From positions 1 to 29,192 of the IMG/VR virus record IMGVR_UViG_3300042898_000606: a DNA stretch of 29,192 nt. One strand, given 5' to 3'. The stretch comes from a virus. Its lineage: Duplodnaviria; Caudoviricetes. This document shows positions 6,582 to 27,533 of this stretch, piece by piece (positions within the stretch are counted from its first letter, which is position 1; every line of letters begins with the position of its first letter). The position numbers and the translations under genes were made by a program. The notes under the pieces were generated by a model that made no database searches, was not told where the DNA came from, and worked only from the letters and a program-made list of their open reading frames with translations.

Positions 6582-7351
6582 GAAAACGACTATTTTATGA
6601 CATTGAGACTTCATTCAATGTCGGGGTATTTTGGAGAACAGGATACAACCTTAACATTAACCCAGGTGACATCATTCATGAGCGTGCAATCATCTGCATC
6701 TGCTATAAATGGGAGGGTGAGGAGGAAATTCACAGCCTAACTTGGTCCAAATCACAGAGTGATAAGAAAATGATAGAGGCATTCGTTAAGGTATTGCACA
6801 AAGCAGATGAGATAGTGGCTCACAATGGGGATAGATTTGACCTCAAGTGGATACGCACACGGGCTTTATTTCATGGCATCAATGTAATGCCCTCACCCAA
6901 GACCATAGACACGCTGAAATGGGCCAAAAGGTACTTTAATTTTAACTCAAACAAACTAGACTACATAGCTAAGCTACTTAAGGTAGGTGCTAAGATGGAA
7001 ACAGGAGGGCTTGATCTATGGAAAGACATCGTATTTAGAAAGGACCAGGATGCATTAGATAAGATGGTGGCCTATTGCAAGATGGATGTTGAGGTACTTG
7101 AGTCAGTATTCAATAAACTAAACAGCTACACCCTAGTTAGTCATAACTATGCTGTTCAGAATGGGGGTGATAAGTACGAATGTGCAGAATGTGGAGGTAC
7201 TAATCACAGGCACAATAAAAAAGTAGTCACTGCAGCAGGTACCGTACACCATTGGCTACAATGTAGAGACTGCAAAAAACACAATAAGATAAACCACTTG
7301 GTATTCACTAAGTATCAGGAGTATCTATACAAGCGAAAGAATATATCTTAA
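6578..7351 (+). CDS. DnaQ-like (DEDDy, RNase H fold) 3'-5' exonuclease with C-terminal zinc ribbon
   Basis: ExoI DIET, ExoII HNGDRFD, ExoIII YCKMD; CAEC...CRDC at the C terminus. Confidence 0.8.
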   Translation: MRKRLFYDIETSFNVGVFWRTGYNLNINPGDIIHERAIICICYKWEGEEEIHSLTWSKSQSDKKMIEAFVKVLHKADEIVAHNGDRFDLKWIRTRALFHGINVMPSPKTIDTLKWAKRYFNFNSNKLDYIAKLLKVGAKMETGGLDLWKDIVFRKDQDALDKMVAYCKMDVEVLESVFNKLNSYTLVSHNYAVQNGGDKYECAECGGTNHRHNKKVVTAAGTVHHWLQCRDCKKHNKINHLVFTKYQEYLYKRKNIS

Positions 7352-7403
7352 GCTTTTACACTGATTTTACTACATATTTTTTAAGTTTTTAGGCTGATTC
7401 CTT

Positions 7404-7422
7404 ATTTAGAATCATTCTAAAT
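7404..7422. promoter_or_regulatory. perfect 9-1-9 palindrome, Fur-box-like operator
   Basis: ATTTAGAAT-C-ATTCTAAAT in the largest regulatory gap. Confidence 0.65.
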
Positions 7423-7455
7423 TTGTGCAAAACTTAATTTTTTTGTGCAAAATGT

Positions 7456-7485
7456 TTTGCAGATATGAAACCTTTTATATCTTTG
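7456..7485 (+). promoter_or_regulatory. early host-sigma promoter (TTTG-N18-TATCTTTG)
   Basis: Matches the Bacteroidota -33/-7 consensus, upstream of the first early gene. Confidence 0.75.
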
Positions 7486-7513
7486 TCAGGTATTAACACT
7501 TAAAAATTTATTT

Positions 7514-7693
7514 ATGGAACGTTTTAACCAACAATTTAACAGAGCCCTTGACTTTATCAAGGCAAACGAAAACAACGCAGAAGTGCTCACTTTTTTCCTA
7601 GAGCAAATGCTTGTAGAAGCTAATGAGGAAATGACTCAGATAGCATTAGATAACACCGAAGATTTTTTAACCATCTTAAACGCTAACAAATGA
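7514..7693 (+). CDS. hypothetical early protein, 59 aa (MERFNQQFNRALDFIK...)
   Basis: Manually translated; A/T-rich leader after the promoter; ATGA-coupled to the next ORF. Confidence 0.75.
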   Translation: MERFNQQFNRALDFIKANENNAEVLTFFLEQMLVEANEEMTQIALDNTEDFLTILNANK

Positions 7694-7788
7694 AAAGAGA
7701 ACTATTCAATGTAGCTGCAAGTGTAGCTGTAATTTTAGCTACCATGGTAGCAATGTATAACACTTTAATTTTTATGATATGCAAGTAA
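7690..7788 (+). CDS. small membrane peptide, 32 aa (MKRELFNVAASVAVILATMVAMYNTLIFMICK)
   Basis: ATGA overlap with the previous gene; single hydrophobic helix. Confidence 0.65.
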   Translation: MKRELFNVAASVAVILATMVAMYNTLIFMICK

Positions 7789-8069
7789 CAATAGATAATA
7801 GCACAGCATTCTTTGAATTTGATGAGGTGCATGGTAGCTGTGAGTTTAACATAACTAACATTACCGAGGAGGATTATGAGGTAGAGATAACTAATGTATT
7901 GGCTACCCAAGTGATTGGTGAGGTGGAGCTTGACTACATCCTAACGGATACACAACTTGACCAACTAAATGAGGAGATTATTTGGTGCATTCAGGATACT
8001 AACCTGGTAAGAGATATGCAGGACTTTGATAATGGATTTGATGAGGATGATTGGAGGTATGATGCATAG
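7779..8069 (+). CDS. hypothetical acidic protein
   Basis: 96-aa D/E-rich ORF in the early operon. Confidence 0.7.
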   Translation: MQVTIDNSTAFFEFDEVHGSCEFNITNITEEDYEVEITNVLATQVIGEVELDYILTDTQLDQLNEEIIWCIQDTNLVRDMQDFDNGFDEDDWRYDA

Positions 8070-8307
8070 AGATATCTCAGAGATGGCTAGATGGTGGACC
8101 CGTCAGTCATTCGCAGGAGATAAGGGAGGCTCCTTTAATACCTCCCTATATTTAGAATACCTTAAATGTAAGAACTCATGTATCGACTATTGTACTACTA
8201 CGAAAACAGGCTCAGTGAAAGCTATGACTTCCCAAGCAAAGCCCTCTGCCATTGGCAGCTCAATAAATTCAGAGCAGCAGGTACTCATATTTACGGACAC
8301 TTTGTAA
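8059..8307 (+). CDS. hypothetical protein (WWTRQSFAGDKGGSFN motif)
   Basis: ORF track 8026..8307; start moved to the ATG overlapping the previous stop region; its 3' half overlaps another ORF. Confidence 0.5.
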   Translation: MMHRDISEMARWWTRQSFAGDKGGSFNTSLYLEYLKCKNSCIDYCTTTKTGSVKAMTSQAKPSAIGSSINSEQQVLIFTDTL

Positions 8308-8321
8308 TTGAGAAGGTATGA
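8178..8321 (+). CDS. hypothetical protein, 47 aa (MYRLLYYYENRLSESYDFPSKALCHWQ...)
   Basis: Manually translated; its stop is ATGA-coupled to the HNH gene. Confidence 0.6.
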   Translation: MYRLLYYYENRLSESYDFPSKALCHWQLNKFRAAGTHIYGHFVIEKV

Positions 8322-8926
8322 GACAAGATAAAATACTAGCAATACTCTACCCATACATCCCAGCTAAAGTGCTAGGTGAGTATCTAGGGTTGACTGCATC
8401 CCAAGTGTACAATAGAACGTACAGCAGAAAGATAAAAAAAGACCCTAAAACAAAGAAAGCAATAAACAGGGCCCTGATATTAAACGCAGGTACGCACACT
8501 AGGTATCCTAAAGGTCATGTGCCATTCAATAAAGGTACTAAATGTCCTAATCTACTGCTAACTAATGCAGCTGCTACGATGTTTAAGAAAGGCAACAAGC
8601 CATTCAATACTAGGGAGGCCAATGCAACTAGCATACGTAAGGACTCAACAGGTAGATTGTATCACTACAGTAAGATAGCAGATAGCAAATGGGTATTAAC
8701 GCACCGGTTGATGTGGGAACAGGCTAATGGACCAATCCCTCCTAAGCACATAGTGAGATTTATTGATGGCAACACCATGAACTTAGAACTGAGCAACCTG
8801 GAATGCATCCCAATGAGTGAGAATGCCAACCGTAACACTATACACAGGTTTCCTGATGACCTAAAAAAAGTAATCAGACTTAAAGCAAAATTAAACAAAC
8901 ACATAAAAAACAAAACAAATGGCTAG
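8318..8926 (+). CDS. HNH endonuclease-domain protein with N-terminal HTH and FKKG repeats
   Basis: HRLMWE...GPIP...FIDGNTMNLELSNL...N (HNH_3-like); repeats RYPKGHVPFN and MFKKGNKPFN. Confidence 0.85.
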   Translation: MRQDKILAILYPYIPAKVLGEYLGLTASQVYNRTYSRKIKKDPKTKKAINRALILNAGTHTRYPKGHVPFNKGTKCPNLLLTNAAATMFKKGNKPFNTREANATSIRKDSTGRLYHYSKIADSKWVLTHRLMWEQANGPIPPKHIVRFIDGNTMNLELSNLECIPMSENANRNTIHRFPDDLKKVIRLKAKLNKHIKNKTNG

Positions 8927-9164
8927 AAATGGAATGAACGATCTACGTGATCACCTCTTTGCAGCACTCGAGAGATTAAATGATGAGGAGCTAACATCTG
9001 AGCAACTGACTACGGAGGTAGAAAAGGCACAGGCAATTTCTAACCTATCCAACTCTGTGATAAACAGTGCTAAGGCTGAGGTAGACTTCATGAAAGCTAC
9101 CGGTATGATAGCTACTACAAGCAACCTATTCAAGGGTGTTAATGACCCTAAAAGATTAGACTAA
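8919..9164 (+). CDS. conserved phage protein (DLRDHLFAALERL family), commonly adjacent to this HNH type
   Basis: Helical 81-aa protein with a recognisable N-terminal motif. Confidence 0.7.
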   Translation: MARNGMNDLRDHLFAALERLNDEELTSEQLTTEVEKAQAISNLSNSVINSAKAEVDFMKATGMIATTSNLFKGVNDPKRLD

Positions 9165-9358
9165 TGAACCAACACAAAATATACAGGGTGCTAAGGCTCC
9201 TGCAGATGCTACAGGAAAAGCCCAGGACTGTAATGGGAATGGCTAGGTACTTAGGTACAAGTGAACGCACAGCATACAGGTACCTTAAGCTATTTGAAAA
9301 GCTAGAGTATAACGTAAAACGAGATAATTACTACAAATATTACATTGAGAAAAAATGA
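9164..9358 (+). CDS. winged HTH DNA-binding protein (HTH_11-like)
   Basis: TVMGMARYLGTSERTAYRYL. Confidence 0.8.
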   Translation: MNQHKIYRVLRLLQMLQEKPRTVMGMARYLGTSERTAYRYLKLFEKLEYNVKRDNYYKYYIEKK

Positions 9359-9852
9359 GAGGAGAAATAGATGAGACAGTATTCGAGCTCACAAAGCTAC
9401 AGAATGAGGACCTAATGAAACTAATCCTGGACTACCAACTAAACACACCTAGTAGAGTAGAGATATCAGCATATAAGAGGTACTACCTGTACAACTATAT
9501 GTACAACTACCGGCACATGACCCTGAGCATGATAGGTAAATTCTTTAACCGCGATCATAGCTCAGTTATTCATGGCATGAAAGAGCATAGCTATTGGTAT
9601 GGTAGAAAAGATGAGAGATACCTCAAGTACATTCACCCATTACCTGACCTAATCAAACAGAAAAGGGATGATATTAATATCTTTGATGTCAGTGTCATGC
9701 CGATGTGTGACGAAGAGGCAAGGGTAACAATCACAGGAAATATGCCGCCAAAGTTATTAACAAAATTTCAGGATAAGATGACTGTATCCGATATAGTAGC
9801 TATCTTTGAGGACCATAATTTTTTAAGGGTTAATATGGGGGAGGGGGTTTAG
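9355..9852 (+). CDS. protein with DnaA domain IV-like (Bac_DnaA_C) HTH
   Basis: TLSMIGKFFNRDHSSVIHG resembles the DnaA signature SLxxIGxxFxRDHTTV. Confidence 0.75.
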   Translation: MRGEIDETVFELTKLQNEDLMKLILDYQLNTPSRVEISAYKRYYLYNYMYNYRHMTLSMIGKFFNRDHSSVIHGMKEHSYWYGRKDERYLKYIHPLPDLIKQKRDDINIFDVSVMPMCDEEARVTITGNMPPKLLTKFQDKMTVSDIVAIFEDHNFLRVNMGEGV

Positions 9853-9866
9853 GCTCCCTCTTTTTT
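9801..9866 (+). ncRNA. putative ~50-nt small RNA (TATCTTTG -7 element, antisense core, terminator)
   Basis: TATCTTTG at 9801-9808; core 9813-9835 complementary to the leaders at 7491-7517 and 13276-13295; hairpin plus T6 at 9841-9866. Confidence 0.45.
9841..9866 (+). terminator. intrinsic terminator
   Basis: GAGGGGGTT-TA-GGCTCCCTC followed by TTTTTT. Confidence 0.75.
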
Positions 9867-9867
9867 A

Positions 9868-10050
9868 TGACCGTATGACGATGTGACGATACTCTTATAG
9901 GGGGTACTTAATATATAGAGCACTAAAAAAGTTTTCGTTCTGGAAAATTTATCGTCTTATCGTCATGAAATAGCTGAAACCCAATACAGCACTAGTTTAT
10001 AGCCGTGACGATGATTTTATTTTATCGTCATTAGTTGGAATTTATTGTCA
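9868..10050. other. putative replication origin with TGACGAT/ATCGTCA iterons
   Basis: Copies at 9876, 9884 and 10006 (TGACGAT) and at 9951, 9959, 10024 and 10044 (inverted, some with 1 mismatch) in the non-coding gap before the primase-helicase. Confidence 0.7.
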
Positions 10051-10063
10051 TTTATTATATTTG
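10034..10063 (+). promoter_or_regulatory. host-sigma promoter for primase operon (GTTG-N18-TATATTTG)
   Basis: The -7 element ends 6 nt before ATG 10070, implying a leaderless or near-leaderless mRNA. Confidence 0.65.
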
Positions 10064-10069
10064 TAACCT

Positions 10070-12385
10070 ATGTTTAACCCTAAAATATCAGTTTTCAGGA
10101 GTTTGTACAACTCAAAGGAAACGCCATTCACACTTGAGGCCATAGAAGTGTACAACAGAATCAAGCAAGGTAACCCCGAGCTGATTAATAAGATAAAGAA
10201 ACTAAGAGCAGGAGATGCGGAAAGCAAAATGCAGCTCATGGCTATCATGTTCAACGGCACATTTAGTGAGCGTAAAGATGATGGCCTGATACAGCACTCA
10301 GGATTGTGCGTGCTGGATTTTGACAAGTATCCTGATAAGGAAACTTTGACAGCAGAACGGAACAGGCTCAAGGAATGCCCCTATGTGTACATGATGTTCA
10401 CTTCTCCCAGTGGTAATGGACTCAAGGTAGTTATCCGTACACCTGAGAGCAATAAGTTTGAGCACAAGCGTAGATTTGAGGCATACAAGGAATACATTAA
10501 TAGTGATTATTTTGACGTGGCCAATAGCAATGTGTCAAGGGTATGCTTTGAAAGCTACGACCCTGATGCCTACCTCAACGAGTTCTGTGATGTGTTCCAA
10601 GGAATTACCCAGGATAAAGGATATCACAAGGCAGAAAAGATTGCAGTGCTCCCCATTGCTAATGAGGACCGTATCATTGAGCTTGTCATGAAGTTTAACC
10701 ATGGCATATTTGAAGAGGGTAGGAATAATTGGACCTTTAAAGTTGCCTGCTGCATGGCGGAGTATGGGGTAGACCAGTATGCCGCTAAGAATTACCTCTT
10801 GCAATATGCACAGGAGGACTTTACAGCCACTGAAATAAACTACACTGTTATCAATGCATACAAAAGTAGCAACTTTAACACTAAGTACTTTGAGGATACA
10901 TACACCGTTAACAAGGTCAAGCTAAAATTAAAGGAAGGCCTTAAGGATGAGGACATCCAAAAGCAGTTAGGCGTATCAGGTAACATCATTGAATCAGTTA
11001 AAGAGGAGGTACAGAACTCAGATGATGTATTCTGGCAGGCAGATGGAAAGAAAATTACTATCGTACCGCATGACTATGCTAAATTCCTGCACAAGCATGG
11101 CTTTGCTAAGTACTATCCGGAACGGAGTAACAAGCCTACCTATGTTTATATTGAAGAGAATAAGGTATCTGAGAGCTCAGTGGAGCTAATCAAAGATTTT
11201 GTACTCAAGTACTGCCTTGCTAAGGGTGAACTTGACGTATATAACCACTGTGCTAAGTCAGCAAATTTGTTTACTGAATCACACCTTAATATGCTAGAGT
11301 CTATTGATATGTGTATCCTGCAGGATACAAGGCATGTATCTTACATCCCATTCAATAACGGAGTGGTCCAAGTATCCAAGGACAAAGTAGAGCTACTTAG
11401 CTACATTGATATAGATGGGTACATTTGGAGGGAGCAGATAATCAAAAGAAATTATACCAAAATCGCGATTCACGATAATAACTTCCAAGATTTTGTACAC
11501 AAGGTATCAGCCCAGGATGAGCAGCGTATAAAAGCAATGGAGTCAACACTAGGATACCTCATCCATACATTTAAAGATAAGACAGACCAAAAGGCAATCA
11601 TCTTTAATGACCAAGAGATAGATGATAACCCTAACGGAGGGAGTGGTAAGAGCTTAATGTTAACTGCCATTGGGAATATCCGTAAGATTATAAAGATAGA
11701 TGGTAAGGCATATAACCCATCAAAGAATGATTTTGTGTACCAACGGGTTAATATAGATACTCAGGTGCTTGCATTTGATGATGTTAAAAAACACTTTGAC
11801 TTTGAGCAGTTATTCTCCCTAATCACTGAGGGGATACCGGTCAACAGAAAAAACAAGGATGAGATATACATACCATTCGAGCGAAGCCCTAAGATAGTTA
11901 TCACTACCAACTATGTGATTAGTGGGGCAGGTACCTCACATGATCGTAGGAGGCATGAAATAGAGTTCTTTCAGTACTTTAATAGTCAACGTAACCCACA
12001 GGATGAGTACGGTAAGTTACTTTTTGATGAGTGGAGTAAAGATGAGTGGTCACACTTTGATAACTACATGCTATCTAACCTACAGATGTACCTCCAGAAT
12101 GGATTGGTGAGAAGTGTATCTATCAATGCAGATGCTAAGCGGTTTATTCAGAACACCTGTAAGGAATTCTATGACTTTGTTATGGATGGAAATATAGCCC
12201 TTAATGTAAACTACTATAATAAATCATGCATGGAAGCATTCCAATCTGATACTAATGGCTTCAAGGACCTAGATAGCAGGAAGTTTATCAAATGGGTGCA
12301 AGCCTACGCTAGTTATAAAAATTATAAATTCACAAAAAACAGAAACCAAAATGGCAGATATTTTGAAATCACTCTTGTTGATTAG
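10070..12385 (+). CDS. primase-helicase (BT4734/VirE-N-like primase, PriCT, SF3-type helicase)
   Basis: FNGTF, LDFD, SPSGNGLK, SRVCFESYDP; EGRNN (PriCT); Walker A GGSGKS, Walker B LAFDD, motif C ITTN, and DRRR. Confidence 0.9.
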   Translation: MFNPKISVFRSLYNSKETPFTLEAIEVYNRIKQGNPELINKIKKLRAGDAESKMQLMAIMFNGTFSERKDDGLIQHSGLCVLDFDKYPDKETLTAERNRLKECPYVYMMFTSPSGNGLKVVIRTPESNKFEHKRRFEAYKEYINSDYFDVANSNVSRVCFESYDPDAYLNEFCDVFQGITQDKGYHKAEKIAVLPIANEDRIIELVMKFNHGIFEEGRNNWTFKVACCMAEYGVDQYAAKNYLLQYAQEDFTATEINYTVINAYKSSNFNTKYFEDTYTVNKVKLKLKEGLKDEDIQKQLGVSGNIIESVKEEVQNSDDVFWQADGKKITIVPHDYAKFLHKHGFAKYYPERSNKPTYVYIEENKVSESSVELIKDFVLKYCLAKGELDVYNHCAKSANLFTESHLNMLESIDMCILQDTRHVSYIPFNNGVVQVSKDKVELLSYIDIDGYIWREQIIKRNYTKIAIHDNNFQDFVHKVSAQDEQRIKAMESTLGYLIHTFKDKTDQKAIIFNDQEIDDNPNGGSGKSLMLTAIGNIRKIIKIDGKAYNPSKNDFVYQRVNIDTQVLAFDDVKKHFDFEQLFSLITEGIPVNRKNKDEIYIPFERSPKIVITTNYVISGAGTSHDRRRHEIEFFQYFNSQRNPQDEYGKLLFDEWSKDEWSHFDNYMLSNLQMYLQNGLVRSVSINADAKRFIQNTCKEFYDFVMDGNIALNVNYYNKSCMEAFQSDTNGFKDLDSRKFIKWVQAYASYKNYKFTKNRNQNGRYFEITLVD

Positions 12386-13262: not shown

Positions 13263-13270
13263 TATATTTG
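13263..13270 (+). promoter_or_regulatory. host-sigma -7 element (TATATTTG) for the recombination operon
   Basis: Intergenic, 22 nt before ATG 13293; TTTG at 13237-13240. Confidence 0.65.
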
Positions 13271-13292
13271 TAGAAATTAACACCTTAAAATT

Positions 13293-13835
13293 ATGACAAC
13301 AGTTAAAAAACAAGCAGCTGAGCAAACAGCACCCGAGGTAATTACCCTCAACATCTACCAAAAACTGCACCTAGCTAAGCAGTCAATGGGTAAGGTCATT
13401 AAGAATGCTACTAACCCACATTTCAAACGCAGTTACGCTGATATTAACAGCATCATTGAGACTGTTGAGCCTATCTTATTAGATTGTGGATTGCTACTAT
13501 TGCAACCCGTAAGAGATGGTAAAGTATTCACTGAGATAATTGATATTGAAACAGGAGATAGTATGGAAAGTTCACTTGAATTACCTGCTATTATAGACCC
13601 TCAGAAGCTACTTAGCTGCATTACTTACTACCGTAGAGGTACACTAGTTAGTTTACTTTCCCTGCAAGCTATTGATGATGATGGTGAGACCGCAAGCAAG
13701 GCACCCAAGGCAAAGCCTACGTTGGATGGGGATAGATGGACCAAGGCATTCAATGCAGTGAAGAGTGGTAAATTCACACCTGAGCAGATTAAAGAGATGT
13801 ATAACCTAACAAAAGAGCAGGAGGCACAACTATGA
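13293..13835 (+). CDS. erf: ERF-family single-strand annealing protein
   Basis: KNATNPHFKRSYA, GLLLLQP, SCITYYRR and DDDG motifs. Confidence 0.9.
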   Translation: MTTVKKQAAEQTAPEVITLNIYQKLHLAKQSMGKVIKNATNPHFKRSYADINSIIETVEPILLDCGLLLLQPVRDGKVFTEIIDIETGDSMESSLELPAIIDPQKLLSCITYYRRGTLVSLLSLQAIDDDGETASKAPKAKPTLDGDRWTKAFNAVKSGKFTPEQIKEMYNLTKEQEAQL

Positions 13836-14101
13836 TACTACCTAACAAAAAGCAGTTAAAAGAAATGCAATATCTTAGTGTTCGTAGGAAAGAAGATAAG
13901 CAGTGGCTAGACCAGTTAGCTAATGAATACGGATGCAGCATAGAGGATGCATGGAAATTGTATGTAGAGAGTGATAACGAATACATCTATCTTAATGAAA
14001 ATTTTGGGTTCTCAATTAATGAAATTAAAGTTATCCCTGAGGATTGGGATGGTGGATGCCAACATATTTATAGATGTGCTGCTAATATCATTAAGCTATG
14101 A
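13832..14101 (+). CDS. hypothetical protein
   Basis: ATGA-coupled at both ends. Confidence 0.7.
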   Translation: MILPNKKQLKEMQYLSVRRKEDKQWLDQLANEYGCSIEDAWKLYVESDNEYIYLNENFGFSINEIKVIPEDWDGGCQHIYRCAANIIKL

Positions 14102-14721
14102 AGTTCAGAGCATCATCATTAGGAAAATTAATGACCTCCTCCCGTACTAAGGGGGAGGCATTGAGCCAAACAGCTAAGAGCTATATCATCCAAAAGGCTA
14201 AAGAGGATTTCTTTGAGTATCGGAGTGAGCTCAACAGCAAGTACATAACCAAAGGATTAGCCCAGGAGCAGGACAGTATCGACCTACTTAACTTGGTTAG
14301 GCTAGAGGACTACAAAAAGAATGAGGAGAGGGTAGAGAATGAGTGGCTATCCGGGTGCTGTGATATTATCACTGAGACAAGTATCATAGATATTAAAACC
14401 TCGTGGTCTTTAGATACGTTTCCTGCCACTAACTATGAGCTCAAGGACCTATCTGACTATGAATGGCAAGGACGTGCTTACATGTGGCTATATGACATGC
14501 CATCTTTCGAGCTGTGCTATGTAATGGTAACTACTGCTCCTGAGATTATGGGTGACTATGAGAATGGAGCTCTGCACTATGTAGATCATATTGCACCTGA
14601 GAAGCGTATCACATCCATTACCTTTGCTAGAGATAAGGAGATAGAGATACAAATGGCTGAGAGATTAATTTTAGCTAATGAGTTCTATAACGAAGTATTA
14701 AACCAATTAAAAAATAAATAA
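14098..14721 (+). CDS. YqaJ / lambda-exonuclease-like 5'-3' exonuclease
   Basis: RASSLG, KGxxQE, GCCD, IDIKTS and YEWQGRAYM motifs. Confidence 0.85.
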   Translation: MKFRASSLGKLMTSSRTKGEALSQTAKSYIIQKAKEDFFEYRSELNSKYITKGLAQEQDSIDLLNLVRLEDYKKNEERVENEWLSGCCDIITETSIIDIKTSWSLDTFPATNYELKDLSDYEWQGRAYMWLYDMPSFELCYVMVTTAPEIMGDYENGALHYVDHIAPEKRITSITFARDKEIEIQMAERLILANEFYNEVLNQLKNK

Positions 14722-14722
14722 A

Positions 14723-15034
14723 ATGAAAACACAAAAAGAAATTGTAATGCATAAACTAAATGCAAAAAGATTTAAAAAAAATAACTTGTATTCTACAAAG
14801 AAAATATCTAGTATCCTTGGAATAACAAATAATAAAATGTTGAGAAATGGAAACTTAAATATTTCTTTAAAAAATAGCCCTGAGTGGAGACATGAATACC
14901 GTAGAATGTGGACGTATATAGGGCCTGAGATTAAAAATACAATAGCATCGACATTACCTAAAAAACAAGTAATAAAAACAAAACCTAAACGAAGAGAGAT
15001 ATCTTTATTTTGGGGATTAATATCTATAAGATGA
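14723..15034 (+). CDS. hypothetical basic protein
   Basis: Lys-rich ORF encoded by conspicuously A-rich DNA. Confidence 0.6.
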   Translation: MKTQKEIVMHKLNAKRFKKNNLYSTKKISSILGITNNKMLRNGNLNISLKNSPEWRHEYRRMWTYIGPEIKNTIASTLPKKQVIKTKPKRREISLFWGLISIR

Positions 15035-15243
15035 ACATAACACACGAAAACGAAATAAAGCAAGAGGATAGCATCCTAGTAGCAGTGATGGCTAAGTACT
15101 ATGAACGGAGTAAGAGGGGGCAGCAGAAGTACGGTACTAACCTAGATAGGAAAGATGTTGACCTGGAGGGATGGCTTAACCATCTACAGGAGGAGCTGAT
15201 GGATGCTACTCTTTATATTGAGAAATTAAAGAAAGAGATATGA
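15031..15243 (+). CDS. small all-alpha protein, MazG/NTP-pyrophosphohydrolase-like
   Basis: GQQKYG...WLNHLQEELMDATLY; ATGA-coupled start at 15031. Confidence 0.5.
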   Translation: MNITHENEIKQEDSILVAVMAKYYERSKRGQQKYGTNLDRKDVDLEGWLNHLQEELMDATLYIEKLKKEI

Positions 15244-15452
15244 AACAAACAGCAGTAGAATGGTTGGTTGAAGAGTTTAAAGAAAAACTAACAGGAAATA
15301 ATTTACCTAATTGGGTTTTAGATGTTATCCAACAAGCCAAAGAAATGGAGAAGCAACAGATAATAAATGCTAATAACAGAGGTTGGAAAGTTGCAAGAGA
15401 AAGCATTTATGAACTAGGAGAACAATATTACAATAAAACCTTTAAGGGGTAA
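15240..15452 (+). CDS. hypothetical protein (MKQTAVEWL family)
   Basis: Recognisable MKQTAVEWL, QAKEMEKQQI and EQYYNKTF motifs. Confidence 0.75.
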   Translation: MKQTAVEWLVEEFKEKLTGNNLPNWVLDVIQQAKEMEKQQIINANNRGWKVARESIYELGEQYYNKTFKG

Positions 15453-15491
15453 AAATTACCCTCGATTAACAATAAGGGGTAAAAATTGCCC
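15443..15491. repeat. two 19-bp direct repeats TAAGGGGTAAAAATTRCCC, each palindromic
   Basis: 15443-15461 and 15473-15491, period 30 bp. Confidence 0.85.
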
Positions 15492-15512
15492 CTTTAACTA
15501 AATAGAAATGAT

Positions 15513-15734
15513 ATGAAAGCAACACTTGAATTTAACTTACCTGATGAGCAGGCAGAACACTACTGTGCCATCAAAGGCCAGGATATGCTAAATGTACTAT
15601 GGGAGCTCAAATCAGAGCTCCGTAGTATGTTGAAGTATGGTGAGCTACCTGATGCACAATATGAGATAGTAGAGAAGATACAGGACTTCCTAATGAGTAG
15701 CCTAGATGATAACGATGTAAACCTAAATAAATGA
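15513..15734 (+). CDS. hypothetical conserved phage protein (MKATLEFNLP family)
   Basis: 73-aa ORF with A-rich leader. Confidence 0.75.
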   Translation: MKATLEFNLPDEQAEHYCAIKGQDMLNVLWELKSELRSMLKYGELPDAQYEIVEKIQDFLMSSLDDNDVNLNK

Positions 15735-15979
15735 GATACCCTATTATTTTCTTATCAGCTCTAGTCATTGAGATATGCAGCACCTTTTACATTAGGTTTG
15801 TATCTGAGGGCAATGCACCAGGTATGATATTCTTTGCAGCCATTGGCCCATTCCTTGGGCTCCCATTCCTAACCTACATGATAGAGGCTACTAATTGGAA
15901 TGAAAGGATATTGAATGCTGTAGCACTGAGTGCAGGATATATCACAGGAACAGTAATAGTAATAACTTTAATAAAATGA
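15731..15979 (+). CDS. small membrane protein (3 hydrophobic segments)
   Basis: Hydrophobic pattern; ATGA-coupled. Confidence 0.7.
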   Translation: MRYPIIFLSALVIEICSTFYIRFVSEGNAPGMIFFAAIGPFLGLPFLTYMIEATNWNERILNAVALSAGYITGTVIVITLIK

Positions 15980-16068
15980 TTATATTAGCAGCAATTTTAA
16001 TAGCCCCTGCCATAGTGTGGGGGTGGATAAGCACAATTAACTACATCAAATACATAAACCATGAGTAA
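15976..16068 (+). CDS. small membrane peptide, 30 aa (MIILAAILIAPAIVWGWISTINYIKYINHE)
   Basis: Manually translated; fills the gap and overlaps both neighbours. Confidence 0.6.
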   Translation: MIILAAILIAPAIVWGWISTINYIKYINHE

Positions 16069-16417
16069 ATTCAAAGGAGAGGTGGTATTCATTACCCCGA
16101 CAACGTCAGTATCTGACAAATTTAAGAAGAGAGAAGTAACCCTGAAGTCTCAGGATGAGTACCCTCAGTACGTTACCTTCCAATTAACCCAGGATAAATG
16201 CGATCTAGCTAACAACCTGAAAGCAGGGGATGCGGTAGAGGTGAGTTATAACCTACGAGGCCGTAAATGGGAGGCACAAGATGGTACCATTAAGTACTTC
16301 AACTCCATTGAAGCATGGACTATGAGCCTGAGCTCAAAGGTAGAGAATAGTGCTGTTGATAAATTGAGAAAAACTTTTGACACTACAGATGAGAGCAGTA
16401 ACGATTTACCTTTCTGA
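16061..16417 (+). CDS. ssb: single-stranded DNA-binding protein (DUF3127 family)
   Basis: FKKRE, YPQ, NLRGRKW, YFNSIEAW and an acidic tail ending DLPF. Confidence 0.88.
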   Translation: MSKFKGEVVFITPTTSVSDKFKKREVTLKSQDEYPQYVTFQLTQDKCDLANNLKAGDAVEVSYNLRGRKWEAQDGTIKYFNSIEAWTMSLSSKVENSAVDKLRKTFDTTDESSNDLPF

Positions 16418-16610
16418 GGACCAACAGCTATCCGAATGGATGCGAAAAGAGATAACAGGCATGCTATCCAAGAGATATAAGCTAACCCATCTATCTGAGG
16501 ATATGAATGTGAATTATGCTAAGCTATACCGCTTCATGAGGGGTAGGAATGTAACCACTGAGATATATGATTCATTTTTTAGAGTATATTTGAAGTCATG
16601 GAACTCCTAA
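16389..16610 (+). CDS. HTH DNA-binding protein (Cro/XRE-like)
   Basis: LTHLSEDMNVNYAKLYRFMRG. Confidence 0.6.
   Translation: MRAVTIYLSEDQQLSEWMRKEITGMLSKRYKLTHLSEDMNVNYAKLYRFMRGRNVTTEIYDSFFRVYLKSWNS
16585..16592 (+). promoter_or_regulatory. host-sigma -7 element (TATATTTG) before the sigma-like operon
   Basis: Ends 5 nt before ATG 16598, the same geometry as the primase promoter. Confidence 0.5.
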
Positions 16611-16846
16611 CATTAATACCCTTGGCATGGTGGTGGTGCAATTTTGAGCCACTACAAGCAACTATTACAAGGATATACATGTCTTTTAGAATTGGCACAT
16701 GGGCTATACCCTTACTAGATGCATTGAGCTGTAGTAAGTGTGTAGCCTTTTGGCTTACATTAGCATGGCATCAGGATTTTATCCTTGCATGTCAGGCAGC
16801 ACTGGGTGCATACATACTTGAATTATGTTTGAACAAACTGACATAG
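16598..16846 (+). CDS. membrane protein with CxxC (DUF1360-like)
   Basis: Hydrophobic, LSCSKCVAFW. Confidence 0.65.
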   Translation: MELLTLIPLAWWWCNFEPLQATITRIYMSFRIGTWAIPLLDALSCSKCVAFWLTLAWHQDFILACQAALGAYILELCLNKLT

Positions 16847-17040
16847 AGATAATAGATAAGATAGATGCTACTGCGGATGCTGTGAAGTATTCTAAGCACT
16901 CCTGTGTTCAGCTCTATAAAATACGGGTCAAGTATGATGGGCCACAGCCTAGGGAATGCTTCTGTGCATCTGTTAGGCGTAAAGTGTGGTACAAAGACTT
17001 TATGAATTGGTATGAAAAGAGTCTTAGACAGGTACATTAG
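16825..17040 (+). CDS. small Cys-containing hypothetical protein
   Basis: 71 aa, ECFCAS. Confidence 0.65.
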   Translation: MFEQTDIEIIDKIDATADAVKYSKHSCVQLYKIRVKYDGPQPRECFCASVRRKVWYKDFMNWYEKSLRQVH

Positions 17041-17557
17041 TACCCATTACTACGAGGTAAGGGCTTACACGCTGTACTTTCTCACTAAGATGGGGAGTAA
17101 TATCGAGGCGGATACGGTTATTAATAACTCATACCTCCATGTACTAAGCATCAATGAGGATACTCAGAGCGAAGCCCAGGTGAAAAGCTACCTGCTCAAT
17201 ACCATCAAGTATCAGATTCTATGGAATACCTCACTAAGCCACAAGGATGATAGGGTTACTTCAATGGAATACGATGCATCTGAGCAGGAGGATAATGAGC
17301 AGGACCTACAGGCTAAGATACTAGAGGATAAAATATACAGTACTCAGAAGGGATTGATAGAGATATACAGAAGCGAGATAGATGATCATGTGCACAGGAT
17401 AGTATTTGAGGCATACATTGATAAGGGATACACCACAGCAAGAGGGATGGCTAAGTACTTTGATATACCGGTAACATCTGCTCACTATCTGATTCGAGAA
17501 ATTAAACAAAATTTACGCAAATTACAATATAGGTATGAGACTATCTCAAATAATTAG
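17012..17557 (+). CDS. divergent ECF sigma-like / late transcription activator
   Basis: Region-2-like ADTVINNSYL...YLLNTIKYQI and region-4-like HTH TARGMAKYFDIPVTSAHYLI; 181 aa; located just before the packaging genes. Confidence 0.6.
   Translation: MKRVLDRYISTHYYEVRAYTLYFLTKMGSNIEADTVINNSYLHVLSINEDTQSEAQVKSYLLNTIKYQILWNTSLSHKDDRVTSMEYDASEQEDNEQDLQAKILEDKIYSTQKGLIEIYRSEIDDHVHRIVFEAYIDKGYTTARGMAKYFDIPVTSAHYLIREIKQNLRKLQYRYETISNN
17505..17534 (+). promoter_or_regulatory. putative late promoter copy 3 (AACA-N16-CAATATAGGT)
   Basis: Inside the 3' end of the sigma-like gene, abutting ATG 17535. Confidence 0.7.
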
Positions 17558-17711
17558 CCTATTGGCTACGTTCACTGCTTTGACCGGTGCTGTGTTTTTG
17601 CTTAGAGATAACAGCACTCTAGCAATGAGAGCCTTTGGGATATGGGTAGTGCTTTATTATGCATGGCTATTTTTAGAACAATACGAATATGAAAAAGAAA
17701 GTAAAAAATGA
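17535..17711 (+). CDS. small 2-TM membrane protein, 58 aa (MRLSQIISLLATFTALTG...)
   Basis: Manually translated; starts directly after the late motif. Confidence 0.7.
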   Translation: MRLSQIISLLATFTALTGAVFLLRDNSTLAMRAFGIWVVLYYAWLFLEQYEYEKESKK

Positions 17712-17901
17712 GTACCTAGGTCAGTATATAACCAGGTACAATCCGTTGGGGTTTGAGACCTCATTCACAGTAACTGAAGAGACAGCTAACCAAGCTGAGC
17801 ACCTTACATCTGTAGGGTTAGGATATCTCTTTGAAGAGGTAGAGTCTGAAGCTAAGAGTAAAAAGTATAAAGGGGTAGAGCCTGAGTCAAATGAGGCCTA
17901 A
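17689..17901 (+). CDS. hypothetical protein
   Basis: 70-aa ORF upstream of terS. Confidence 0.7.
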   Translation: MKKKVKNEYLGQYITRYNPLGFETSFTVTEETANQAEHLTSVGLGYLFEEVESEAKSKKYKGVEPESNEA

Positions 17902-18313
17902 GCATATACCTACTCCCGAAGATATGTGGGATCTATTCGAGGCCTACAAGAGATGGTGTAAAGAAAACCCTAGATACTCCTATTCCCTATCTACTAAGAC
18001 AGGAGAGGCTACAGCAGTACCATTAGAGAGACCGCTTACTCAAGTGGGTTTCAGGACTTTTGCTGCTGAGAAAGGGCAGAGTGTTCAGGATTATTTTGCA
18101 AACTACGAGGGGAGATATTCCGCGTTCACGACAATCTGCTCACGCATAGAGGAGGCAATCCGCATGGACCAAATCGAGGGGGGTATGGTTGGGCAGTACA
18201 ATGCTTCCATTACTCAACGTCTAAACAACTTAACTGAGAGGGTTGACACTACCACTAAGGGAGATAAGATAGAGAGCATACAGGTAACCATAGTGCGGCC
18301 TGATGCAGATTGA
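17891..18313 (+). CDS. terS: terminase small subunit (P22 gp3-like DNA packaging protein)
   Basis: TPEDMWDLFEAY, RPLTQVG and GMVGQYNASITQRL motifs; upstream of terL. Confidence 0.85.
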   Translation: MRPKHIPTPEDMWDLFEAYKRWCKENPRYSYSLSTKTGEATAVPLERPLTQVGFRTFAAEKGQSVQDYFANYEGRYSAFTTICSRIEEAIRMDQIEGGMVGQYNASITQRLNNLTERVDTTTKGDKIESIQVTIVRPDAD

Positions 18314-18470
18314 ATTCATGTGTGCCGTGGTTGAGGACTACATCTACAAAATGAAAGGCGTACAGGTTAGGATAGATAGGAGGGCAGTAGCTACCGATGG
18401 CAGGCAGATGGCTATGCTAATGAATGCATTTCAAATAGCTAATGGAAATAAAGAGCACAGTAATATTTGA
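18303..18470 (+). CDS. hypothetical protein, 55 aa (MQIEFMCAVVEDYIYKMKG...)
   Basis: Manually translated; bridges terS and terL with overlaps. Confidence 0.6.
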   Translation: MQIEFMCAVVEDYIYKMKGVQVRIDRRAVATDGRQMAMLMNAFQIANGNKEHSNI

Positions 18471-19593
18471 GAAAAACTACGAGGCACTCAATGACCCGGG
18501 GATAAGGTTTGTAATTAATGAGGGAGGCTCACGTTCCTCCAAGACCTATAGCCTTTGTCAGTTAGTTATCATCTATTGCTTACAGAACAACCATAAGGTA
18601 GTATCTGTTATTCGTAAGACATTCCCTGCTCTAAGGGCTACAGTACTCAGAGACTTCATTGAGATACTCAAGGAACTCAATATCTATTCAGTAGAGGACC
18701 ACAATAAGAGTGAGCACATCTACACGTTCCCTAATGGGTCCATCGTGGAATTCTTTAGTGTGGATGATGAGCAAAAGATACGGGGCCGCAAGAGAGACAT
18801 TGCATGGTGTAACGAAGCCAATGAGCTATACTTCGATGATTTCACTCAGCTGAACATGAGAACAGAGAGTAAGCTAATCTTTGACTACAACCCTAGTGAA
18901 TCTACCTCATGGCTCTATGAGCTACCACAAGAGGAGAGCATCATGATTAAGTCAACGTACAGGGATAACCCATTCCTACCTCAGAGTATCAGGACTCAGA
19001 TAGAGGACCTAAAGAGAACGGATGAGGCACTGTATCAAATCTATGCCTTGGGTGAGAAAGCAATCAGCAAGAGTAACATCTATTCTCAGTGGTCATTCGT
19101 GGCACATAGGCCTGCTAGGTTTGTCAAGTTTGTATACGGCTTAGACTTTGGATACAATCACCCTACCGCACTCATGAGGGTGTACTACTGTGATAAGGAT
19201 ATATACGTTGAGCCTGTGATATATGAAAGCTACCTGACTACTACCATGCTGATTGAAAGGTTAGCAAGCCTAGGCATAGAGCAGACTGTTAGCATACTAG
19301 CAGACTACTCAAGGCCTGAGATTATACAGGAAATGAATATAGCAGGCTATGATGTACTGAATGCAAACAAGGTAGTTAAGAAAGGGATAGATAACCTTAA
19401 GACCTTTGGCGTTATATGCCAGGATGATAAGGCACTCAAGAGGGAGTATGAGAATTACAAGTGGAAAAAGGTAGGGGACTTTATAACAGATGAGCCGGTT
19501 AAGTTATTCGATGATGCCATGGATGCAATCAGGTACGCGACTACTCACATTAAGCAGCAGTATTATTCGGATGATGTCTACTATGCATTCTAG
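18442..19593 (+). CDS. terL: terminase large subunit (PBSX/SPP1-like)
   Basis: Walker A GGSRSSKT, Walker B AWCNEA, DYNP; nuclease GLDFG and DDAMDA. Confidence 0.95.
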   Translation: MEIKSTVIFEKNYEALNDPGIRFVINEGGSRSSKTYSLCQLVIIYCLQNNHKVVSVIRKTFPALRATVLRDFIEILKELNIYSVEDHNKSEHIYTFPNGSIVEFFSVDDEQKIRGRKRDIAWCNEANELYFDDFTQLNMRTESKLIFDYNPSESTSWLYELPQEESIMIKSTYRDNPFLPQSIRTQIEDLKRTDEALYQIYALGEKAISKSNIYSQWSFVAHRPARFVKFVYGLDFGYNHPTALMRVYYCDKDIYVEPVIYESYLTTTMLIERLASLGIEQTVSILADYSRPEIIQEMNIAGYDVLNANKVVKKGIDNLKTFGVICQDDKALKREYENYKWKKVGDFITDEPVKLFDDAMDAIRYATTHIKQQYYSDDVYYAF

Positions 19594-19594
19594 A

Positions 19595-19624
19595 AACAAA
19601 ACACCAGGATAAAATAATATAGGT
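19595..19624 (+). promoter_or_regulatory. putative late promoter copy 4 (AACA-N16-TAATATAGGT)
   Basis: Fills almost the entire terL-tail gap, abutting ATG 19625. Confidence 0.75.
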
Positions 19625-21091
19625 ATGGCAATGACATTAAAGGCAGCACCTCAAGTGCTCACCCCTGCATACAACCCTATCAAGTATATCTATGATAGCA
19701 CCAACAAAAACATTGGAGGCTTTAAGTATATCTTTGAGGTGTACGAGTCAGGCACTGCCAATCAGATAGCAGAGTACAGGGTGCTCCCTGTTTTCTCTAC
19801 AGGCTACGGAGAGATAGACCTAAGCAAGCTATTGCAAGCCAAGGTAAGCTATGACCTATTCCCTACTAACACCACAGCATATCCTGCACCAAACAGTCAT
19901 TACAAGTATGATGTCAAGGTAGGTGAGGAGTATCTTACTACTACCACGTTCACCACTACTATGAGTCAGTACACTACTGCACCATACTCAGGAAGAGTAC
20001 AGCTGAATGGAGCTAACACATTTGTGGTAGGTGATCAGATAGTCTTGACACAAACATTTATAGGTACAGTCAACCCTACCCTTGACGGCCTGTACACTGT
20101 GCTCGTAGCTACACCTACATTCATTGTTATTAACTTCCTATGGTCAGGAATCATTAACCCTAACAAGGATGTTGACATTACCTATGCCGATGGGAGAAAG
20201 ACTGTAACCTACAACATCATTAGTGACCTGAATAACTACGTCTTTAATGGTGCACTGCCTTGGACTGAGTGGCCATCATGGAACCAGGCTAACTATAACT
20301 TGAGCAGTAACACTGACAAGTTCCTTACCTCCATTCCTGCTACCAACTTTTACTCTACCTTATCTCAGGACCTATGGATGAACGCAGTCTATGGCGCTAT
20401 ACCTGGAGGAACGCACAGGATAGTATTCACCAATGATGGGGGTGATGTGTTGAGAAAGACAGTGACTGCCTCAGACCACGTAACAGGGAATGCGGTAGGT
20501 CCTAACAATGCAGGCACCTTGACTGTAGTCTCGGGTACACTGCCATTGATTAAGCCTACCACTCAGTGGTATGAGTACTACTATCAGCACAATGGTGCAC
20601 AGGTAACACAGAGCTACCGAGTGAACATAGATCGTAGAACACAGAGCCAAGAGTACAGCATTATATTCCTTGACCGCTATGGCTCATGGGGTAGCTTTGC
20701 ATTCACAGGCAGAGCCTATGAGAAAGGCAACGTAACTCGTGAGCAGTACAACATGGATGTGCAAGGTAAGATAGCTAGCAGTGAGTGGACCTATGACCTG
20801 ATAGATAGAGGGTACATTAACAGCTATGTAACAGTAGAGGAAACCATTGACCTGAATACTGATTGGATGACTCAGGACATGGCTACCTATTTTACTGAGC
20901 TAATCAGTTCACCCTACACATACTTCAAGGTAAGCAACTACGATGTGAGCTGCGATGTACCTACAAGCACAGCCTATGTGAGCTGCAACATAGTGACCTC
21001 TAGCTATGAATACTACAAGCAACGGAATAAGAATCTAATCAAGCAAAGCATTACTATTAAGCTAGCTAATAACGACATGGTCAATGGTTAG
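19625..21091 (+). CDS. tail tip / distal tail structural protein
   Basis: 488 aa, Thr/Tyr-rich; FLDRYGSWGSFAF and LNTDW motifs; first gene of the tail operon. Confidence 0.6.
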   Translation: MAMTLKAAPQVLTPAYNPIKYIYDSTNKNIGGFKYIFEVYESGTANQIAEYRVLPVFSTGYGEIDLSKLLQAKVSYDLFPTNTTAYPAPNSHYKYDVKVGEEYLTTTTFTTTMSQYTTAPYSGRVQLNGANTFVVGDQIVLTQTFIGTVNPTLDGLYTVLVATPTFIVINFLWSGIINPNKDVDITYADGRKTVTYNIISDLNNYVFNGALPWTEWPSWNQANYNLSSNTDKFLTSIPATNFYSTLSQDLWMNAVYGAIPGGTHRIVFTNDGGDVLRKTVTASDHVTGNAVGPNNAGTLTVVSGTLPLIKPTTQWYEYYYQHNGAQVTQSYRVNIDRRTQSQEYSIIFLDRYGSWGSFAFTGRAYEKGNVTREQYNMDVQGKIASSEWTYDLIDRGYINSYVTVEETIDLNTDWMTQDMATYFTELISSPYTYFKVSNYDVSCDVPTSTAYVSCNIVTSSYEYYKQRNKNLIKQSITIKLANNDMVNG

Positions 21092-23936: not shown

Positions 23937-23937
23937 C

Positions 23938-26157
23938 ATGAATGAAGTAGAGATACCATTAAAGATAAGTGGCATTGCTGCCATCAAAGCGGAGCTTAGA
24001 GACCTTAAGGGGCAGATAGCGGAGTCTACTGATCCCGAATCAATGACCGTCTTAGCTGAAAGAGCAGGAGCATTAAAGGACCAACTTAAGGATGCTAATG
24101 AACAGGTCAATGTATTTGCTTCCGGGTCAAAGTTTGAGCAAGTATCTAATAGCTTTGGCTCTATTAAGAATGACATAATGAGCCTTGACTTCGAGGGTGC
24201 AGCTGAAAAGTCTAAGGCCTTTGCAAAAACATTAGGGAGCATTAACCCTAAGGACCTAGGCAAAGCATTCGGAGGCTTGATGACTACCTTAAAGACAGTG
24301 GGGGGAGCCTTTGTAAAGTTAGGTATGCAGATACTAGCTAACCCACTCTTTTTATTGGTGGCTGTTATTGTGGCTATTGTGGCTGTAGTACTAATCTTTC
24401 TAAATAAGATAGGTGTGCTACAGAAAGTCATTGACTATTTAATGATACCTATCAACGCATTGATTCAGGGATTAAAGGATTTAGGTGATTGGCTAGGATT
24501 AACTAGCTATGCTGCAGATGAGAACGCAGATAGAATGGCTAAGGCTAATGAGAAAATAACAGAGAGCTCTAAGAAACGTACTGAGTTATTAGGTGAGAAC
24601 TATGACCAGGAGATAGCCATGGCTAAGATAGCAGGTGAGGACACTACTCAGCTCGAGCTTGACAAGTCGAGGTCAACAGAGAAAGAGGCTATTAAAAGAA
24701 AGAACTCAGCTAAGAAAGCTCTTGAAGCAATGGCCCATCAAGAGGGTGAGGAAGCCACAAAAAAACGGGAGGCATTACGCAAGCAGATAGAGGATGAGAA
24801 TAAAATTATTCGAGGTGGTGTTAATCAGCGCAAGTTAATAAAGGCTCAAGAGATAGCAGATGAGAAAGCTGCAGAAAAGAAAGCAGATGAGGCAGCAGAG
24901 GCAGCAGCAGCTAAGGCAGCAGCAGCAGCAGAGAAGGCTAGAGAAAAAGCTAAGGCAGCTGCTAAGCAAAGACTAGATAACGCTAGGGCATTGAGAGACT
25001 TTGAGCTCACACAGATACAGGATGCCAATGCAAGAGAGGTAGCTATCGTAAATGAGAAGTATGCCAGGTTAATGAATGACCTGAAAACGGATGCCACTAA
25101 AACAGCAGAGGAGAAAGCTAAGTTTAATGCGATGTTTATATTGCAACAGCAGCAGGAACTTGATAAGCTAGCAACAGATAAGGCTAAGATTGAAGCGGAT
25201 AACTTAAAGAAAGGTAATGAGATTATAGCTGATTTACAGCTGCAGATGATGGAGGAGGGAACTGAGAAAGAACTCGCCATGACTAAGACAAAGTATGACA
25301 AGCTACGAGCTCAGACCTTAGCAGATACCACACTAACCGAGGAGCAGAAGAAAGTACTTACTCAATTATACAATGATCAGGAGGAGGCAGAAAATCAGAA
25401 GAGAACAGATGCCAAGTTAAAGCAACAGGAAACCCTTGCTAAGACGTTAGCAGATGCTGAGCTTACTGAGGACCAAAAGAAACTGCAAGCACTTCAAACA
25501 AAGTATGACGCAGAGTATAAACTAGCAGAGGGTAATGTTGCCCTGCAGTTAGCTCTTAGTAATAAATTCAAAAACGATACAATAGATATAGAACGAGATG
25601 CATCTAATCTTAAAGTTGAAAACGCTAAAAAAGAAAGGGATGCAAAAATACAGCTAGCAGGAGACATAGCCACAGGTATTCAAAATGTAGGTGCTGCCTT
25701 TATTAAGGACCAAAAGAAACTCGAGAAGTTCAACAAGGCAATGGCATTAGTGCAGATAGGTATTGATACTGCCAAGGCAATCTCTGCATTAGTTGCTGCA
25801 TCACAATCTAACCCCTCCAATGCTGTTACCTTTGGAGCGTCAGGTATTGCACAATTTGCTGCAGGTATCATACAGATTGCTACCAACGTAGCCAAGGCTA
25901 AGTCTATACTAACATCAGGCGGCACCCCATCAGGCGGTGGCGGCGGTGGCGGCGGTGATACAGGTGGCACCCCTAACGTAGCACAGCAAGTACCACAGGG
26001 AGCACAGCTATTTGGCTCAGCTAATGCAGGAGGTACAATGAGTGCAGGAGGTGGTACAAATAATAGCTCTATGACTGTGACCGCTGTAGTATCAGAGACC
26101 CAGGTAACCAACGTACAGAATAAGATTAATAAGATTAACAAAAACGCTGAACTATAA
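23938..26157 (+). CDS. tail tape measure protein
   Basis: Long A/K/E-rich coiled coil, hydrophobic segment after NP, Gly-rich C terminus ending VVSETQVT. Confidence 0.85.
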   Translation: MNEVEIPLKISGIAAIKAELRDLKGQIAESTDPESMTVLAERAGALKDQLKDANEQVNVFASGSKFEQVSNSFGSIKNDIMSLDFEGAAEKSKAFAKTLGSINPKDLGKAFGGLMTTLKTVGGAFVKLGMQILANPLFLLVAVIVAIVAVVLIFLNKIGVLQKVIDYLMIPINALIQGLKDLGDWLGLTSYAADENADRMAKANEKITESSKKRTELLGENYDQEIAMAKIAGEDTTQLELDKSRSTEKEAIKRKNSAKKALEAMAHQEGEEATKKREALRKQIEDENKIIRGGVNQRKLIKAQEIADEKAAEKKADEAAEAAAAKAAAAAEKAREKAKAAAKQRLDNARALRDFELTQIQDANAREVAIVNEKYARLMNDLKTDATKTAEEKAKFNAMFILQQQQELDKLATDKAKIEADNLKKGNEIIADLQLQMMEEGTEKELAMTKTKYDKLRAQTLADTTLTEEQKKVLTQLYNDQEEAENQKRTDAKLKQQETLAKTLADAELTEDQKKLQALQTKYDAEYKLAEGNVALQLALSNKFKNDTIDIERDASNLKVENAKKERDAKIQLAGDIATGIQNVGAAFIKDQKKLEKFNKAMALVQIGIDTAKAISALVAASQSNPSNAVTFGASGIAQFAAGIIQIATNVAKAKSILTSGGTPSGGGGGGGGDTGGTPNVAQQVPQGAQLFGSANAGGTMSAGGGTNNSSMTVTAVVSETQVTNVQNKINKINKNAEL

Positions 26158-26594: not shown

Positions 26595-26623
26595 ACATTT
26601 GAGGGGGTTAAAATAATATAGGT
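26594..26623 (+). promoter_or_regulatory. putative late promoter copy 5 (AACA-N16-TAATATAGGT)
   Basis: Fills the intergenic gap, abutting ATG 26624. Confidence 0.75.
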
Positions 26624-27397: not shown

Positions 27398-27533
27398 TAT
27401 TAACGGAATAGAGTACACCATCACAGGACCCATTGAGGTAGTGAGTGATACACAGCTCCATGTGGAAACAGATAAGGGTATCATTCTAGTAGATGATACA
27501 ATGGAAATATATAAAGCATTAACAAATGGCTAG
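27390..27533 (+). CDS. small protein, 47 aa (MFNINGIEYTITGPIEVVSDTQ...), possibly fibre-associated
   Basis: Manually translated; overlaps both neighbours by 8 nt. Confidence 0.6.
   Translation: MFNINGIEYTITGPIEVVSDTQLHVETDKGIILVDDTMEIYKALTNG

Follow-up and report, generated by a model that had tools for sequence, protein, structure and literature searches.

The 29,192-base sequence analysed in this study (hereafter the window), a complete virus record with direct terminal repeats, probably encodes a trans-acting small RNA of about 54 nt, predicted to pair with, and block, the translation starts of three early operons. The original prediction had proposed an RNA directed at the phage's own early and recombination starts, with silencing of host mRNAs as a further branch; conservation, target ranking and covariation speak for the former, and the latter was not supported. 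A conserved promoter box, an anti-leader stretch and a terminator would together yield an RNA of ~54 nt with its own transcription start. The components of this cassette and the features around it are:

9355-9852, plus strand: HTH gene resembling the DnaA C-terminus; in the window allele, its 3' end and the cassette overlap
9801-9808, plus strand: predicted sigma-ABfr -7 promoter box of the small RNA, TATCTTTG (consensus TAnnTTTG)
9813-9866, plus strand: predicted small RNA of ~54 nt, delimited by promoter and terminator
9813-9835, plus strand: anti-leader seed of 23 nt, single-stranded (unpaired in the consensus fold), with the anti-AUG first
9837-9866, plus strand: intrinsic terminator (GC hairpin and U-tract), common to the cassette and the first early operon
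9870-10030, no strand: probable replication origin, with direct and inverted short repeats immediately 3' of the terminator, kept across the family

The RNA would pair with the starts of the first genes of three early transcripts made by the host polymerase, i.e. those of the first early gene, the primase-helicase gene and erf. Pairing over the A-rich positions -3 to -13 and the AUG would block 30S loading, as has been shown for the host RNAs FopS and GibS. In Bacteroidota, upstream adenines drive initiation, and translation starts are A-rich and lack Shine-Dalgarno sequences (available text of PMC6847099). One host polymerase would transcribe both the RNA and its targets, so that the RNA would accumulate once the phage has entered and increase with genome copy number, braking early, replication and recombination proteins by delayed negative feedback. 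In a cell that already contains the RNA, a second phage whose leaders bear the same address would be silenced as well, and kin exclusion would arise as a by-product. The selected role may be timing, copy control or exclusion.

The window carries head, portal, lysis, terminase and tail genes, together with genes for an Erf recombinase, an exonuclease, an SSB and a BT4734-type primase-helicase. Among its 50 proteins, none was matched as an integrase or as a CI-type repressor (Pfam being applied to subsets of 11 and 20 proteins). Relatives of the primase are present in phages and genomes of Flavobacterium and other Bacteroidota and, since TAnnTTTG boxes also precede the operons, the host is likely a member of the Bacteroidota. 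The phages carrying the cassette are a widespread freshwater family, for which no close cultured relative was found among annotated phages (best 37%) and no close relative among plasmids. The sole minus-strand operon (27988-28788 and a gene running from 171 across the genome end) has its own promoter box and is kept in relatives; family searches, including Pfam, assigned its two conserved proteins to no family. The 9-mer AATATAGGT occurs five times on the plus strand (205, 2798, 17526, 19616 and 26615), each a few bases from the start of a late-region gene, and is likely a late-promoter or late-leader motif. The designation of 9870-10030 as a probable origin is based on its repeats.

The TAnnTTTG element was correctly placed at 9801-9808 within the DnaA-like ORF, which gives a weak Bac_DnaA_C match (E 5e-6, below the Pfam cut-off), and the intrinsic terminator that had been predicted downstream of it is recognised as a GC hairpin with a U-tract. 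The distance from sigma-ABfr box to transcription start is 4-5 nt according to the available text of PMC6847099, so that the RNA is predicted to start at 9813-9814, on the anti-AUG. The promoter box by itself is weak evidence, because TAnnTTTG occurs 48 times in the window (34 times on the plus and 14 on the minus strand). We agree with the initial remark on the poor -33 element, of which nothing but a TG (9779-9780) is left; a TG 19-22 nt upstream is found in 10 of 15 cassettes. RNA data were available as contigs from two runs with small word shares. One run supplied a single 151-nt contig at 9723-9873 (depth 2), beginning 90 nt before the predicted start, and no long piece on 14000-29192 was seen among the contigs of the first run; in the second, contigs of relatives span most of the 7-14 kb region of the window. 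These contigs are uninformative as to the predicted RNA. Neither the window nor eight loci of other seed types matched an Rfam family at its gathering score, and eight sub-threshold matches are regarded as due to chance.

Conservation in relatives, which the original prediction had made a test of the proposal, was clearly observed. Among 170 protein-retrieved loci, 129 carry the seed with its full context, representing 61 distinct contexts; the promoter box lies 5-6 nt 5' of the seed in 60 of these and the terminator is present in all 61. The two free positions of the box vary, while its six consensus positions are constant. At distinct junctions with a primase identity of at least 70%, the window seed was found in 57 of 67 cases, and the other 10 contain wholly different seeds placed in the same frame of box and terminator; none of the 10 junctions missed by the search pattern has a near-variant seed. 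In a set of 63 contexts (protein-retrieved plus pattern-retrieved loci), the DnaA-like gene terminates at the very beginning of the seed in 33 and reads through it in 28. Five seed variants occur in this set, including a one-base 5T/6T indel, and the anti-AUG is never touched. Among the 28 read-through alleles none of the seven seed codons varies versus 33 of the 41 upstream codons, a comparison in which five of the seven are prescribed by the search pattern itself. In the terminator stem, both sides have changed at 4 of the 10 pairs. A peptide gene on the opposite strand was considered and rejected, the ORFs there comprising 1-28 aa in type A and 2-79 aa in the other seed types, none of them conserved. 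Since the seed hardly varies even where it lies past the stop codon, as in about half of the contexts, and no opposite-strand peptide is conserved, the constraint acts on the nucleic acid.

Most of the family possesses the cassette. It is held by 116 of 120 distinct loci with 4.5 kb available upstream of the primase: 109 match one of ten type patterns, seven are variants recognised by inspection, and four hold no cassette. The cassette was not found in genomes G003 and G006 or at loci L271, L277, L318 and L384, of which G003, G006, L271, L277 and L318 constitute a cassette-less clade. In that clade (L409-L410, L415-L416 and L421), the clade's own leader motif has a complementary stretch before a late-operon terminator; this candidate was not counted, as no promoter box was seen before the complementary stretch. 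Candidates in L390 and L392 were likewise not counted, their targets not being established. At L035, a deletion in the DnaA-like gene has removed the first bases of the promoter box and left seed and terminator intact. L192 and L193 show two oppositely oriented copies of the cassette on one contig, possibly an assembly fold-back.

It might be argued that the internal box is incidental and that the seed functions solely as the 3'-terminal part of a long read-through mRNA, either by folding back onto the leader of that mRNA or once processing has taken place. The sharing of one terminator by cassette and early operon in the window would suit this reading, as would the weak -33 element and the overlap of the box with codons in the window's clade. 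However, the spacing of the box is maintained also where the box is intergenic (a full -33 element being present in one such clade), and in other clades the cassette has moved to the end of the late operon. The seed is also less accessible in the read-through context in 9 of 9 alleles, an effect that added sequence tends to produce anyway. We therefore give this explanation little credence, and return to an RNA with its own start and to the sites with which it would pair:

7478-7516, plus strand: target 1, comprising promoter box 7478-7485, leader 7491-7516 and the first early gene 7514-7693; rank 2 of 227
13263-13295, plus strand: target 2, comprising promoter box 13263-13270, the leader with AUG 13276-13295 and erf (13293-13835); rank 1 of 227
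10056-10086, plus strand: target 3, comprising promoter box 10056-10063 and codons 2-5 of the primase-helicase gene (10070-12385); rank 6 of 227
14695-14725, plus strand: weaker predicted target, start of a 103-aa gene 3' of the exonuclease; rank 3
9135-9166, plus strand: weaker predicted target, start of the HTH gene 9164-9358; rank 4

The complementarity first reported between the reverse complement of 9813-9835 and the leader at 7491-7511 (19 of 21 positions) was reproduced, and is the longest of 52 inverted pairs in the region 7300-10200. Over the whole 23-mer this leader scores 19, and the next best site in the genome 15. Pairing with the erf leader at 13276-13295 is as previously described, the product of 13293-13835 being assigned to the Erf family by protein family matches, and both of these targets do follow promoter boxes (7478-7485 and 13263-13270). 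The start of the primase-helicase gene 10070-12385, which is nearly leaderless, is a third target, absent from the original prediction; it ranks 5th of 44 hand-listed starts. The three targets lie 2.3 kb upstream and 0.25 kb and 3.5 kb downstream of the cassette, each behind its own promoter box.

By raw duplex energy the two leaders are only the 2nd and 5th non-self entries among 1166 sites. With target accessibility included, erf is 1st, the first early gene 2nd and the primase 6th of 227 ATG starts, which agrees with the expectation that the leaders would outrank background targets. The five best of the 44 hand-listed starts are those of erf, the first gene, 14723, 9164 and the primase; the capsid start is 10th and that of the divergent, promoter-led minus-strand gene 21st. 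When 300 shuffled seeds were run against these 44 starts, some start equalled the erf score 20 times and the second-best start equalled the first-gene score 4 times, and not one shuffle placed erf and the first gene jointly on top. The predicted duplexes are modest (-11 to -17 kcal/mol). Different portions of the seed are involved, the 5' half for erf, the middle together with the 3' part for the first gene, and the GGG run for codons 2-4 of the primase; the greater constancy of the seed, compared with any one leader, would follow from such a division among targets. In whole-genome rankings (G002 having been left out, and G003 and G006 having no seed to rank), at least one of the three targets was among the top two non-self starts in 6 of 8 genomes. 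In G008 erf was 5th, in G010 erf and the primase fell outside the top nine, and in G009, whose contig breaks off within erf, the top nine contained not one of the three named targets.

In the family at large, rewriting of the seed has given rise to about ten types. A scan by architecture only (box, 12-55 nt, GC hairpin and U-tract) over 405 sequences showed that distant clades share this build and have new seeds, CAT standing 5-10 nt after the box in nearly all of them. The seed of each clade mirrors its own leaders, e.g. type D those with ACACGCT and type C those with CAATTAAC; types H and I were found after the leaders had been seen. In type I the terminator hairpin displays the anti-leader in its loop and is preceded by a second hairpin of freely varying sequence. 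Among type-I loci (L405 7150-7240, L201-L258), a G-C to A-U change in the terminator stem is seen in four loci.

We compared own-clade and other-clade pairing in a swap matrix of nine types (type J, known from the single locus L368, was left out). The mean z for own-clade targets was -4.15 for erf, -4.02 for the first gene (seven types) and -3.37 for the primase, versus -0.99, -0.85 and -0.75, respectively, for other clades, and the own-clade target was best in 8 of 9, 5 of 7 and 6 of 9 rows, respectively. Permutation gave p values of 2/362880 (erf), 1/5040 (first gene) and 1/362880 (primase); with H and I excluded, so that only architecture-picked types remained, they were 2/5040, 2/120 and 2/5040. 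As the clades are kin, these p values do not derive from independent draws. Drift from a common ancestor, however, would erode complementarity rather than keep it through a rewrite. The seed types span all main branches of a quick primase tree (52 of 172 rows). The primase of L122 is 87% identical to that of the window and nests among type A, and its seed and both leaders are of type C, which looks like a recombination event that kept seed and addresses together. As a more doubtful extension of these results, a single 55-nt RNA may be a master repressor whose early-transcript addresses are clade-specific, the seed types representing RNA-based immunity groups that determine which kin are able to replicate in one and the same cell.

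Taking into account how common the promoter box is (48 copies in the window) and that raw duplex energies overlap the background, an ordinary operon terminator preceded by AT-rich sequence resembling the leaders by chance would have to be considered. Against this stand the non-coding invariance of the seed and the own-clade complementarity retained across rewritten seeds, by which this explanation is in practice already refuted; its probability is close to nil.

The covariation between seeds and leaders, named as a check in the original prediction, thus holds at the level of clades, while at single pairs compensation is incomplete and a G-U bias is absent. Mismatches between seeds and their own targets comprise 3 G-U compatible changes versus 9 reverse transitions, a weak test given the G-poor leaders and n = 12. 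In clade D, seeds with the C-to-T change are found solely where the leaders show the corresponding G-to-A change (L283, L303, L306 and L382), but L282 and L288 keep C opposite A.

The lack of a G-U bias would also be compatible with a shared motif serving as an operator, bound after the early promoters by a phage HTH or DnaA-like protein and present in inverted form at the cassette, with no RNA pairing involved. Two HTH-type genes adjoin the element, and a protein and its binding site would covary by clade too. However, the cassette copy is inverted in every type whereas the leader copies are all in sense orientation; it lies between a promoter and a terminator, with no ORF, and carries the anti-AUG. 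The target copies, moreover, keep their position relative to the start codon while their distance from the promoter varies, and the type-I copy resides in a conserved hairpin loop. We consider an operator improbable.

Somewhat less improbable, and still unlikely, is that the RNA pairs with the same sites and acts on nascent transcripts, by termination or decay in the manner of P4 CI, mainly as the immunity factor of a non-integrated carrier state. The three main targets are all at the extreme 5' ends of transcripts, the seed is displayed in a hairpin loop in one clade, and the clade-specific seed types resemble incompatibility groups; the failure to match an integrase or a CI-type repressor among the 50 proteins fits as well. 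On the other hand, the anti-AUG has been kept at the 5' end in eight linear types, which points to translation; no partition genes were recognised, no close relative was found among plasmids, and nothing observed indicates a carrier state.

A further explanation is that the main targets are host mRNAs, and that the phage leaders match because they copy the host leader style. The A-rich starts of Bacteroidota, devoid of Shine-Dalgarno sequences (available text of PMC6847099), would favour it, as would the observation that the type-A seed varies less than any single phage leader. However, when the seed, in a leader form of 19 nt, was sought and a single mismatch permitted, matches turned up in 3 of the 401 genomes covered for the likely host phylum (which may not include the host) versus 8 control matches, and none of the three matching sites begins an ORF of more than 18 aa. 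Late phage leaders, which would be expected to share the host style, rank lower, and the clade addresses are specific words and not generic A-runs. Host mRNAs as the main targets are hence very improbable, and the originally suggested silencing of host mRNAs found no backing.

A role as primer RNA for the origin was set aside in view of types D, F, G, H and I, in which the cassette stands last in the late operon, 2-3.5 kb away from the primase. In several clades (L302, L310-L318 and L322), a long structured leader with a shared core replaces the short leader between promoter and primase.

The phage sRNAs described so far derive mostly from enterobacterial or other model temperate phages, and act mostly on a single phage gene or on host genes; the available text of a review (PMC12197685) contains no mention of "Bacteroid-" or "Flavobacter-". 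No description of the present RNA was found in Rfam or in the literature searched, and five short motifs were absent from the supplements of PMC10690425 that were covered, its large alignment archives lying outside the search. Here, a single predicted RNA seems to coordinate three early operons at separate places, in a phylum that lacks both Hfq and Shine-Dalgarno signals. If true, this would be an RNA-based solution for small phages with no recognisable repressor, allowing them to time or limit their early expression and to exclude kin, and would provide a set of orthogonal translational switches for Bacteroidota. The natural panel of matched and mismatched seed/leader pairs makes the mechanism testable in Flavobacterium reporters without phage culture.

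Antisense control of replication is well known from plasmids, where CopA and RNA I, each cis-encoded and with a single target, act as dosage-coupled brakes on a replication protein, and seed divergence defines incompatibility. In phages, OOP of lambda adjoins the origin, and C4 of P1/P7 is a trans-encoded antisense RNA whose specificity differs between related phages and which controls the antirepressor operon of proteobacterial temperate phages. C4 constitutes Rfam family RF01695 (PMC2864571), whose model matched neither the window nor the eight loci of other seed types. P22 sar, lambda OOP and STnc6030 of BTP1, the last of which gives superinfection exclusion, resemble the predicted RNA in repressing phage genes by pairing (available text of PMC12197685). 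Unlike the latter, they are encoded opposite a single target with full complementarity; the cassette is on the same strand as its several targets, up to kilobases away and imperfectly complementary, and the strand opposite it has no conserved ORF.

P4 CI is likewise a small RNA that represses the element's own replication genes by pairing with leader sites. It is processed from the transcript that it controls, pairs with two sites in one leader, causes premature termination and confers immunity (available text of PMC4825925), whereas the RNA described here has a predicted promoter of its own, does not lie inside a controlled leader between two complementary sites, and would address three separate transcription units by pairing over their start codons.

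The closest likeness in build is to FopS (Rfam RF04319) and GibS of Bacteroides thetaiotaomicron, which combine a sigma-ABfr promoter, a single-stranded 5' seed and an intrinsic terminator; the same promoter box, unpaired 5' seed and terminator are recognised in the cassette, which is known here from its sequence. In these Hfq-less bacteria, FopS and GibS repress the first genes of polycistrons by long AU-rich pairing over the translation start (available text of PMC11697453 and PMC7366714). They are, however, host-encoded and aimed at metabolic operons (FopS is further characterised by RbpB binding and by its repression of polysaccharide-utilisation operons), while the phage RNA would be self-directed and rewritten with its targets by clade. 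Membership in RF04319 is not indicated, the match attaining 15 bits versus a gathering score of 56 (E 9.1) over model positions 21-71 only, with the seed part of the model unmatched. The features expected of a trans-encoded sRNA are nonetheless apparent, as several translation starts show imperfect complementarity above background, and seed and targets change together at the clade level. The predicted RNA is thus similar to FopS and GibS in build and to P4 CI or C4 in purpose, and is a member of none of these groups.
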